This document shows, piece after piece, positions 9,269 to 53,905 of a stretch of DNA of 64,000 bases. This DNA is from a virus. Lineage: Duplodnaviria; Caudoviricetes. A program made the position numbers and the translations under genes. The notes beneath the pieces are model-generated. The model did no database searches. It saw only the letters and a list, made by a program, of their open reading frames with translations, and had not been told where the DNA came from. The stretch's first letter is position 1. Every line of letters begins with the position of its first letter. The stretch spans positions 45,535-109,534 of IMG/VR virus record IMGVR_UViG_3300018475_000104. One strand, given 5' to 3'.

Positions 9269-9868
9269 ATGAAATTTACCGATATTGTTTCAAATGTAAA
9301 AATTTATGATTTAGAAGAATCAATTATCGCAAGTGGCTATCCTATGAGAACTAAAGCTGGTAGGCGAGAAGTTGAGGAGAAAGATATTAATCGGGGCGAA
9401 AAGTTAGTTAGGGCTACCCTTGGCGGTAATACCGCACATCATTAGTTCTTAACAGGTATTAGGGTAAACTTTGATTTAACTTTTACAAATAAGGCGTGGG
9501 TTGAAGCCGAAAGATATAGATTCTTAGAATTTGTTTCAAGCCAATCAACAATGCACAGAATTACTAAATTCAATTTAGATAATCAGTATATTAAATATGT
9601 TGACCCACGAGTTATTAAAATTATGCAAGAGTTGGTTGATGCATACAACGAAAATCCAACTCCAGAAAATTACTTAAAGGTTCTTTATACAAATCCCGCA
9701 GGTTTTAAAATTACTGCGCGCATGACTACAAACTATAGAAGTTTAAGAAATATTTATATTCAAAGAAAGAATCATAGATTACCTGAATGGCGCGCGTTTT
9801 GTAAATGGATTGAAACCTTACCTTTTGCAAAAGAGTTTTTAACTAATATTAATCAAGAAGAGGAATAA
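9269..9868 (+). CDS. ThyX-like flavin-dependent thymidylate synthase family protein; 1 in-frame TAG (9443)
   Basis: ATG 9269 is in frame with ORF 9551..9868. Reads AHH*FLTG...ERYRF...SSQSTMH...TNYRSL...R..HRLPEW. Confidence 0.75.
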
Positions 9869-9915
9869 TTCCTCTTTTTATAGCCGTGTAGTTTAATGGT
9901 AAAACGCCGGTCTCT

Positions 9916-10604
9916 AATTAAAAATTGGACACCAAGAAGGGAAACCGCTTGTGTGAATCGTGTCAAATTCGGTAAAACTCTTTAGGAGAATACAATGGCA
10001 ACAAAAATTTCACTTTTAAGTGACGAAGAATTTTAGAAAATAATTTATGAATCTTATTCCTATGCTGAATGTTGTAGAAAGATTGGATATAGTGATAAAG
10101 GAAGTCATGGCACAGATGCGATAAAGAAAAGATGTCAAGAACTTAACTTGTCTACTAGTCATTTTTCTAAGACCAAGGCAGCAAATAAAAGTAGCACAAA
10201 ATATTCTTTAGATGATATATTGATTGAAAATTCTAATTATAAAAACATATCAAGATTAAAAACTCGACTAATCAATGAAAACAAACTTGAATATAAATGT
10301 GCTATATGTGGTAATACTGGAGAATGGAATAATAATCCCCTAGTTCTTCAATTAGACCATATTAATGGAAAACACAACGACCATCGTTTAGAAAATCTAA
10401 GATTCTTATGTCCTAACTGTCATTCTCAAACAGAAACATATTCTGGAAAAAATAAAAATAAAGACAATACCGAGCTAAATCAGTAAAAAACTGTAAATGT
10501 GTAGAGACTAAACGGCACGAACCTAAACCCAATTTGGGCATGGTTAAGATATAGTCCAGACTACAACACAAATAATTGTGGCCATGGTGACATGGAGTAG
10601 TATG
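9916..10604 (+). mobile_element. Group I self-splicing intron (689 nt) inserted between anticodon positions 35 and 36
   Basis: P1 with U.G wobble exactly at exon U35 (TCTAATT/AATTGGA). P3 CGTGTC/GGCACG. P4 TTCGGTA/TACCGAG. R element GTAGAGACTAA, S element AAGATATAGTCC. P9 hairpin CCATG-GTGA-CATGG with GNRA loop. Terminal omega-G at 10604. Confidence 0.92.
9995..10486 (+). CDS. Intron-encoded HNH homing endonuclease; in-frame TAG at codon 14 (10034)
   Basis: RBS AGGAG at 9984 and ATG 9995, in frame with ORF 10148..10486. CAIC...LDHING...HRLENLRFLCPNCH HNH motif. Confidence 0.88.
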
Positions 10605-10691
10605 AAAACCGTAATATCCTTCTGACGGAGGTTATCTGGGTTCGAATCCCAGCACGGCCGCCAATCAAATATTTTACTGGAGGACAGTCCA

Positions 10692-12160: not shown

Positions 12161-12892
12161 ATGGCGCGAATCCGATTAGAGGACATTCAATAGGAACTCG
12201 CGCGGGATGGCTGGAAGGTCATATCTGAAGAGTATGTCAATCTTGATACGGAAATGATATTTGAATGTAACGAAGGACATCGTGTTTATGCGCCGTGGAA
12301 AAAGATTAGACAGAAAAGAGTTTGTCCTATATGTCAACAAAATTTTGAAAAAAGAGAACAAACAATTATTCCAAAACCAAAAGATAAAAATCGTGTTCTA
12401 GCTTTAGACTAGGCAACAAAAATAACTGGGTGGTCAATATTTGACGGCGCGCAGTTAGTAAAATTTGGAACTTTTGAAACTTCTTTGAATGAAGAGATAG
12501 CAAGAGATAATGCAGTTAAGATATGGCTCATCTCAATGATTGAGAACTGGAAGCCAGACTACATTGGAATAGAAGGAATTTAGCTTTAGGAAAATAGTGA
12601 AGAGCGTAAGATGGGCGTTACAGTTTTTGAAACCCTTGCGCGCCTTCAAGGTATTCTAATGGAAACCGCCTATGAGCATAAAATTCCCTTTAAAATTTGC
12701 CCAACCAATACTTGGCGAGGGCATTGTGGAGTAAAAGGAAAATCTCGCAGTGATAAAAAACGTTCAATGCAACTTATAGCAAAAAGACTTTATGACATCA
12801 CACTAACCGATGATGAAGCAGATGCAATTGGTATTGGTAAATATATAAGCGAGACTTGTGCAAAAGAAGTTTCAATTGAATCATGGGAATAA
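12161..12892 (+). CDS. RuvC-like Holliday junction resolvase with N-terminal Zn-ribbon; 4 in-frame TAG
   Basis: Reads VLALD*ATKITGWS, IGIEGI*L*E, DDEADAIGIG. TAGs at 12191, 12410, 12581, 12587. Confidence 0.85.
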
Positions 12893-53820: not shown

Positions 53821-53835
53821 GCCCCATGCCACCCC

Positions 53836-53885
53836 TTGGGTCTGCAGGTGTAAGTCCTGCACTGATGAGCAGAAGCGAAACCCAA
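53836..53885 (+). ncRNA. Type III hammerhead ribozyme, intact core; predicted cleavage after C53842
   Basis: TTGGGTC-TGCAGG[TGTAAGT]CCTGCA-CTGATGA-GC[AGAA]GC-GAAA-CCCAA; all conserved core bases and stems I-III present. Confidence 0.88.
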
Positions 53886-53905
53886 ACAAGAAAGGAAGTA
53901 TAACC

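Follow-up and report, generated by a model that had tools for sequence, protein, structure and literature searches.

Group I introns inserted in the anticodon loop of bacterial tRNA genes are known from the cyanobacterial tRNA-Leu(UAA), from the tRNA-fMet, where the intron comes with the endonuclease I-Ssp6803I, and from the tRNA-Ile of Azoarcus. In Bacillus phages, group I introns encode homing endonucleases of the HNH type, such as I-HmuI and I-BasI. As regards phages using an alternative genetic code, the group I intron endonuclease of the Agate phages is rich in TGA codons and a delayed expression was proposed for it (Borges et al., bioRxiv 10.1101/2021.08.26.457843). In phAss-1 (PMC10607447) and crAss-like phages (Yutin et al., PMC7886860), TAG is read as Gln, mostly in late genes, and intact tRNA-Sup(CUA) genes are present, phAss-1 harbouring three suppressor tRNAs (PMC10607447). 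The word “intron” is absent from the phAss-1 paper (PMC10607447), and neither a suppressor tRNA split by an intron nor a nuclease relying on the very tRNA that its gene interrupts turned up in full-text literature searches.

The locus considered here associates a suppressor tRNA gene, a group I intron and an HNH endonuclease gene containing an in-frame TAG. It lies in a window, i.e., the whole stretch of DNA analysed, of 64,000 nucleotides, which corresponds to the final 64 kb of a 109,534-bp virus contig (GC 0.37). By its TerL, this gut phage is close to phages of Bacillota such as Geobacillus virus E3 (41.5% identity), Enterococcus phages and phAss-1. As in the Agate phages, the endonuclease is intron-borne with in-frame reassigned stop codons, and its translation is predicted only once the phage suppressor tRNA is available. 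In the Agate phages, though, TGA is reassigned to Trp and the intron resides in an early protein-coding gene, whereas here TAG is reassigned to Gln and the intron resides in the suppressor tRNA gene; unlike its Agate counterpart, the nuclease in the window would depend on the exons flanking its own intron. With bacterial tRNA introns, this intron shares a site in the anticodon loop, a P1 formed from the anticodon stem-loop, a small core and the recovery of a normal tRNA after ligation, but the interrupted gene is a phage amber suppressor, the insertion site lies between positions 35 and 36, and the HNH gene sits in L5 and overlaps P5, P4 and P6. Like I-HmuI and I-BasI, the enzyme is the HNH nuclease of a phage intron, and its expected activity is cleavage or nicking of alleles lacking the intron; unlike them, it belongs to phrog_10822, possesses its own three-helix N-terminal domain and tracks tRNA genes. 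While the suppressor genes of phAss-1 and crAss-like phages are intact, the one in the window is split and missed by standard tRNA scans. Default tRNA scans overlook suppressors split by an intron, which may explain some of the recoded phages reported without a suppressor (PMC7886860, PMC10607447). More broadly, the locus brings to light a mobile intron and a nuclease that appear specialised on a key component of a phage alternative code while themselves using that code.

The split tRNA(CUA) gene is carried by the plus strand. Exon 1 (9882..9915) comprises the acceptor 5' strand, the D arm, the anticodon stem 5' strand and C32 U33 C34 U35. Exon 2 (10605..10663) begins with A36 A37 A38, the anticodon stem 3' strand and a long extra arm (10613-10633, loop UUCUGAC), and continues to 10663 with the T arm, the acceptor 3' strand, G73 and an encoded CCA. 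Once joined, the two exons give a 93-nt tRNA with anticodon CUA that is accepted by ARAGORN, which found zero tRNAs over the whole 64-kb window when scanning without interruption. In the spliced tRNA, the unpaired A1/C72 and G73 are acceptor features of the Gln type, and charging with Gln would be expected from the meaning of the TAG codon in this genome. A later 3' splice site, which would result in the anticodon CUC, was rejected since it would leave a non-canonical loop and since the closing of P9 falls immediately 5' of G10604.

The extra arm of this tRNA shows a particularity of its own, namely a 7-nt loop, UU-CUG-AC, resembling the anticodon loop of tRNA-Gln. Such a Gln-anticodon-like loop occurs in 21-26 of the 36 unique long-arm tRNA(CUA) of IMG/VR that have the common anticodon arm, mostly as CUCUGAA or CUUUGAA and with stems that covary; loci with an extra-arm feature of this kind include L002 1213-1515, G008 c119240-119327, G010 c95354-95443 and L125-L240. 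In L002, the suppressor is an intron-split opal tRNA(UCA), and a Trp-like CU-CCA-AC loop is found at the equivalent place of its extra arm. The extra arm may thus serve as a display of the cognate anticodon to the charging enzyme. Its interpretation as a variable arm of the Ser/Leu/Tyr type, with TAG read as Ser, was rejected because the TAG columns correspond to Gln (see below). The stretch 10580-10659, i.e., P9b strand, extra arm, T arm and acceptor 3' strand, can also be arranged into a tRNA-like structure in which the extra arm takes the anticodon position; the corresponding matches are weak, that is, a mascRNA-like match in the window (22.2 bits, E 0.1) and, for a similar 3' fold at L002 1444-1512, a match to the Rfam tRNA model (23 bits, E 0.015).

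The intron itself (9916..10604, plus strand, 689 nt) separates U35 from A36 in the anticodon. Its P1 (9909-9919/9923-9933) is formed between the anticodon stem-loop and a guide sequence and displays a U9915-G9927 wobble at the 5' splice site, while the terminal intron G (G10604) stands directly after the P9 three-way junction and directly before the 3' exon. Both the insertion site and the guide sequence TTGGACA are common to the window and the homologous loci L246, L247 and L243, and the 3' ends of the homologous introns read GTAGTAAG or GTAGTATG. The match of the intron to Rfam RF00028 is weak (22.1 bits, E 0.0043, for a gathering score of 50), and an Rfam group I search of the ORF-less intron of L002 gave no match. 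The minimum free energy (MFE) fold of the ORF-deleted intron nonetheless comprises P1, P2, P3, P4, P5, P6, P8 and P9, with P7 recognised as conserved motifs and not in the MFE fold, and comparison of three homologous introns with that of the window revealed compensatory changes in P2, P3, P9a and P9b. The 3' ribozyme core (10494..10604) is composed of J6/7-P7, the P3 3' strand (10514-10519), P8 (10520-10545), the P7 3' strand motif AAGATATAGTCC and the P9 three-way junction (10560-10601). The intron has group I anatomy, and by analogy with bacterial tRNA introns it would be self-splicing. Assembled contigs from strains about 96% identical span the ORF (X11, and X23 from an RNA library), and the locus contig from a single RNA run is unspliced, such contigs being unreliable for showing spliced junctions. 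The scan of the locus for promoters and terminators performed no better than on shuffled sequences.

The HNH ORF occupies loop L5. The P5 5' strand (9979-9984) is touched at its top by the AGGAG of the ORF, and the final 10 codons constitute the P5 3' strand, the P4 3' strand and the P6 5' strand. The overlap between ORF and ribozyme (10459..10493) hence contains the P5 3' strand (10459-10464), the P4 3' strand or “Q” (10468-10474) and the P6 hairpin (10481-10493), which has its 5' strand at 10481-10484 and the TAA stop codon at its apex. The first-pass annotation of this DNA had noted that the 3' end of the ORF runs through the Q/P6 core, and the ORF-deleted fold agrees, with these strands falling within the last 10 codons. 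In the related introns of G002 and L102, the same P4-P5-P4' elements are located 5' of the ORF, which there sits in L6. With an ORF lying over the ribozyme core and 3' of a suppressible stop, the window intron offers a simple system for studying a possible competition between translation and self-splicing and a possible self-regulation of suppressor supply.

Regarding the genetic code, the minus-strand late genes (16-52 kb) form long ORFs with up to 44 TAGs when TAG is taken as sense, and several early plus-strand genes are without any TAG. The meaning of TAG was deduced from the alignment of ten late proteins with 80 related IMG/VR loci. Opposite TAG, Q is the commonest residue (500 out of ~1190), and the conserved columns are nearly all Q or TAG, e.g., column 495 of TerL with 75 Q and 5 TAG. 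Because conserved TAG columns are almost purely Q or TAG, the alignments indicate that TAG is Gln in this phage genome (code 15). TAG represents 44 of the 158 Gln codons (~28%) in the largest late gene and, near the tRNA, one of six in the gene at 9269-9868 and four of 12 in that at 12161-12892; the HNH ORF, with one TAG for five Gln codons, conforms to what the TAG share of the genome predicts. Early genes shun TAG, as illustrated by a 1359-aa early protein where it is used for none of 48 Gln codons. As to the supply of suppressor, the intron-split gene is the sole tRNA(CUA) detected on the 109.5-kb contig, and each of three complete TAG-recoded relatives has one tRNA(CUA), all intron-less. 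The contig starts inside a tRNA-Phe gene belonging to a tRNA array, and the rest of that gene is absent from its other end. Contigs encoding the same HNH protein reach 122.6-125 kb; about 13-16 kb may thus be missing, which could hold another suppressor tRNA. Since the contig ends within the tRNA array, the split tRNA(CUA) can be regarded as the sole suppressor of the sequenced part only.

The HNH homing-endonuclease ORF (9995..10486, plus strand) counts 163 sense codons followed by TAA (10484-10486). As the first-pass annotation had described and as direct reading and a script both confirm, it is preceded by a Shine-Dalgarno sequence AGGAG (9984..9988) 6 nt upstream of ATG 9995, has an in-frame TAG at codon 14 (10034..10036), here read as Gln, and presents the nuclease motifs 3' of that codon; this TAG is the only in-frame stop before the TAA. 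Downstream of it, the ORF contains no in-frame ATG or GTG, and the only possible in-frame starts are the TTG codons 52 (10148) and 76 (10220). An identical or 94-98% identical 163-aa protein is present on many contigs. For an 81%-identical homologue, the NCBI protein called with code 11 (P0044) begins at residue 42 and the 163-aa form (P0126) has its sole N-terminal Q at position 14, from which the TAG at codon 14 is probably kept in that phage as well. Scanning contigs with P0126 matched only a 45% relative, and the sole match of a degenerate DNA pattern across codon 14 was the end of an unrelated gene.

At the protein level, the HNH/zinc-finger nuclease core is delineated at residues 97-146 (10283..10432) from Pfam PF01844 (residues 102-145; 26.5 bits for a cut-off of 21.4), from the alignment and from weak Foldseek matches, namely to HNH domains of McrA, Cap5 and Cas9. 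The HNH and zinc residues, i.e., C102, C105, D121, H122, N134, C139, C142 and H143, show little or no variation among 29 aligned sequences. Upstream, an N-terminal three-helix domain (residues 1-57; 9995..10165) is delineated from the AlphaFold2 model and the alignment. The model (mean pLDDT 83, and about 79-92 over residues 1-60) predicts helices at residues 10-19, 23-30 and 37-49, then a floppy linker and then the HNH domain, with codon 14 inside the confidently predicted helix 1. This N-terminal domain probably binds DNA, a role that is only proposed because a PDB sequence search with the HNH protein gave no match, hence no relative of solved structure, and the Foldseek matches, which include winged helix-turn-helix (wHTH) rows, are weak. 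Among 5.8 billion proteins searched, 7960 homologues reached E<=1e-5, the best 120 of them being mostly 154-165 aa long and covering 93-100% of the query, and phrog_10822 matches residues 5-159 (E 1e-52). Whether the N-terminal 51 residues are conserved across the TAG could thereby be settled in the affirmative, i.e., in more than 100 full-length homologues, about 155-165 aa long and aligned from residue 1 onwards, as well as in phrog_10822. In the alignment of 29 sequences, the stretches before and after the TAG are as conserved as the remainder of the protein, and the TAG column is occupied by Q, K, R or I, with Q in the closest homologues. Because the TAG stands in a conserved domain and no other good start is available, the full-length nuclease needs amber suppression.

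The same arrangement is encountered in other phages. Homologous introns are found at the identical tRNA(CUA) site, GGTCTCT|AAAACCG, in L247, L246 and L243-245, with HNH genes 56-60% identical to that of the window. At least four intron lineages thus share one suppressor-tRNA site; of these four, three contain one to three TAGs and one contains none. Tabulated by alignment column of the HNH family, the TAGs of these suppressor introns are positioned at column 14 in the window, at columns 15, 69 and 119 in L247 and at columns 11 and 49 in L246, L243-245 being free of TAG. In other recoded phages, members of the family also occur as free-standing genes beside a tRNA(CUA) gene devoid of intron (L242, L249, L239 and L101, with zero to three TAGs), being immediately 3' of it in L242, L249/L005, G010 and L239: L242 (1096-1680) has TAG at columns 11, 15 and 70, L239 at columns 19, 48 and 145, and L249/L005 (1108-1650) at column 41 in L249, whereas the free-standing copy of G010 (c94825-95443) has none. 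In L002 and L253, an N-terminally truncated remnant of the family is located beside the suppressor tRNA. The family as a whole follows tRNA arrays and suppressor genes. On the basis of these alignments, the use of TAG in the family is common but not universal, and its positions vary between lineages. Among the 16 TAG positions of the recoded family (one in the window and 15 in homologues), six fall in columns 11-19, a clustering that could reflect either selection for an early stop or a helix tolerant of Q, E and K; the helix is indeed rich in these residues, and part of these TAGs are probably shared by descent.

From these elements, the following course of events is proposed. The region 9882-10663 would be transcribed as a precursor whose group I intron is excised by its own ribozyme activity, and exon ligation would yield an amber suppressor tRNA(CUA) of the Gln type. 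Either this precursor or the intron, once released, would serve as mRNA for the HNH protein. Translation initiated at ATG 9995 would halt after 13 residues until charged suppressor exists; from then on, TAG would be read as Gln and the 163-aa enzyme, with its three-helix domain and C-terminal HNH domain, would be produced. The first-pass annotation had suggested that full-length endonuclease is made only after some precursor has spliced and that this constitutes a closed dependency loop. While the dependence of the full-length nuclease on the suppressor is upheld, the closure of the loop is not: the group I core appears complete and splicing is expected without the nuclease. Because splicing would be RNA-catalysed and nothing suggests that the HNH protein is required, the loop is not closed, and the first suppressor molecules can arise without any nuclease. 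The dependence is thus most likely one-way, the translation of the nuclease needing the spliced and charged tRNA and the tRNA being independent of the nuclease.

How the TAG came to be there can be viewed in different ways. The TAG at codon 14 is probably an ordinary Gln codon, the dependence having then arisen through neutral adaptation to the code and not as a purpose-built switch. Because the homing target exists only where the suppressor is already expressed, a TAG costs the nuclease little; it is a sense codon whenever homing is possible, and the constraint against it is therefore expected to be relaxed. One TAG for five Gln codons is likewise unremarkable, since TAG makes up some 28% of the Gln codons in the biggest late gene. 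Against this neutral reading speak the apparent retention of TAG14 in the 81%-identical homologue, the TAG cluster at columns 11-19 and the avoidance of TAG by early genes. The rival reading is a selected gate, where the early TAG keeps the nuclease off until spliced suppressor accumulates, as well as in non-recoded cells, a ribosome without suppressor yielding just a harmless 13-residue peptide. The TAG is indeed upstream of every functional domain, TAGs occur in columns 11-15 of four members (14 in the window, 15 in L247, 11 in L246, 11 and 15 in L242), and that of the 81%-identical homologue is probably the same TAG14; the same logic was proposed for the TGA-rich intron endonuclease by Borges et al. 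(bioRxiv 10.1101/2021.08.26.457843). However, L243-245 lie in the same kind of suppressor intron without any TAG, the positions are unconserved between lineages (14; 15/69/119; 11/49), the TAG count fits the background share, and, the target gene being present only in recoded phages, gating against standard-code contexts would add little. The silencing function that the first-pass annotation had attributed to the TAG is not supported by the comparison, and a selected gate is considered unlikely. Even if the dependence results from drift only, which is the most likely case, the locus would still illustrate clearly how a selfish element adapts to a host genome that has been recoded.

Two other readings would dispense with a functional full-length enzyme. 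Homing endonuclease genes commonly degenerate, often once their intron is fixed, and the truncated remnants beside the suppressor tRNA of L002 and L253 indicate that members of this family can be reduced; the TAG could accordingly be a true nonsense mutation in a nuclease being lost. Yet the presence of just one stop over 163 codons without any frameshift, the integrity of all invariant HNH and zinc residues, the recurrence of the 163-aa protein, identical or 94-98% identical, on many contigs, and the meaning of TAG as Gln in this genome with Q in that column of the closest homologues make such decay very improbable. Alternatively, an active HNH-only nuclease of 112 aa could be initiated at TTG 10148, with no need for a suppressor, and gene callers using code 11 do give exactly this product (P0018, 22 contigs). 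Such a start, raised beforehand as what would contradict the dependence, is hardly credible: no Shine-Dalgarno sequence precedes TTG 10148 or TTG 10220, compared with the AGGAG at 6 nt from ATG 9995, conservation over the 13 codons preceding the TAG and the 37 following it is comparable to that of the remaining protein, and the product would be deprived of the whole three-helix domain with all three N-terminal helices. It is also conceivable, though decidedly unlikely, that the TAG works as a sensor of suppressor level coupling translation to splicing, in a self-limiting circuit setting both tRNA dose and time of homing. When suppressor is scarce, ribosomes would fall off at codon 14 and never reach the P5/P4/P6 strands, so that the core folds and splices; when it is plentiful, read-through would unwind P4-P6 on the remaining precursors, with less splicing and nuclease being made. 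If true, the intron would take part in the early-to-late code switch instead of simply being carried along. Neutral adaptation remains the preferred reading. The sequence data establish the anatomy of the locus, the coding of the ORF, the meaning of TAG as Gln, the conservation and the recurrence in other phages, while self-splicing, the timing of nuclease synthesis, the cleavage target and the lack of selection on the TAG are inferred.

The cleavage target would plausibly be the anticodon arm of intron-less suppressor tRNA genes. In G008, the tRNA(CUA) gene lacks the intron and agrees with the window over all 19 nt surrounding the insertion site, and homing into the anticodon arm fits because intron-less alleles with the same 19 nt exist. 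The 15-nt anticodon arm recurs in at least 116 IMG/VR stretches, and in a contig of sheep-gut DNA the flanks of both exons are joined via an intron-less relative; the exact 27-nt pattern of exon 1 gave no match in IMG/VR.

Some other features of the genome can be mentioned. Directly 5' of the tRNA, the gene at 9269-9868 belongs to phrog_6721, is ThyX-like by eye and has an in-frame TAG (9446-9448). At 9857-9880, its stop codon is found in the loop of a AAGAGGAA/TTCCTCTT hairpin, followed by T's and then by tRNA exon 1; a scan with consensus terminators did not call this hairpin. Further on in the window, a type III hammerhead ribozyme-like match (53835-53886, plus strand; 35.6 bits, E 1e-4, below the gathering score of 48.5) is located within a stretch at 52-60 kb with a GC of 0.43-0.45, overlapping ORFs on both strands and no clear genes. 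Outside the window, in L001, a tRNA-Lys(UUU)-like gene (c571-1135) with a 487-nt insert was reported by ARAGORN; nearly all of the insert is one ORF (139 aa, phrog_5018), leaving too little room for a group I core. At c3367-4166 of L001 (G000:C1), a paralogous group I intron splits a tRNA-Leu(UAA) between U34 and A35; its HNH gene encodes 150 aa without any TAG and is about 30% identical to that of the suppressor intron, and its 3' core closely resembles the one of the suppressor intron. Just downstream of this split tRNA-Leu, at 3290-3359 of L001 (minus strand), lies a skipping-rope RNA (Rfam RF02924; 60.4 bits for a gathering score of 36.7).
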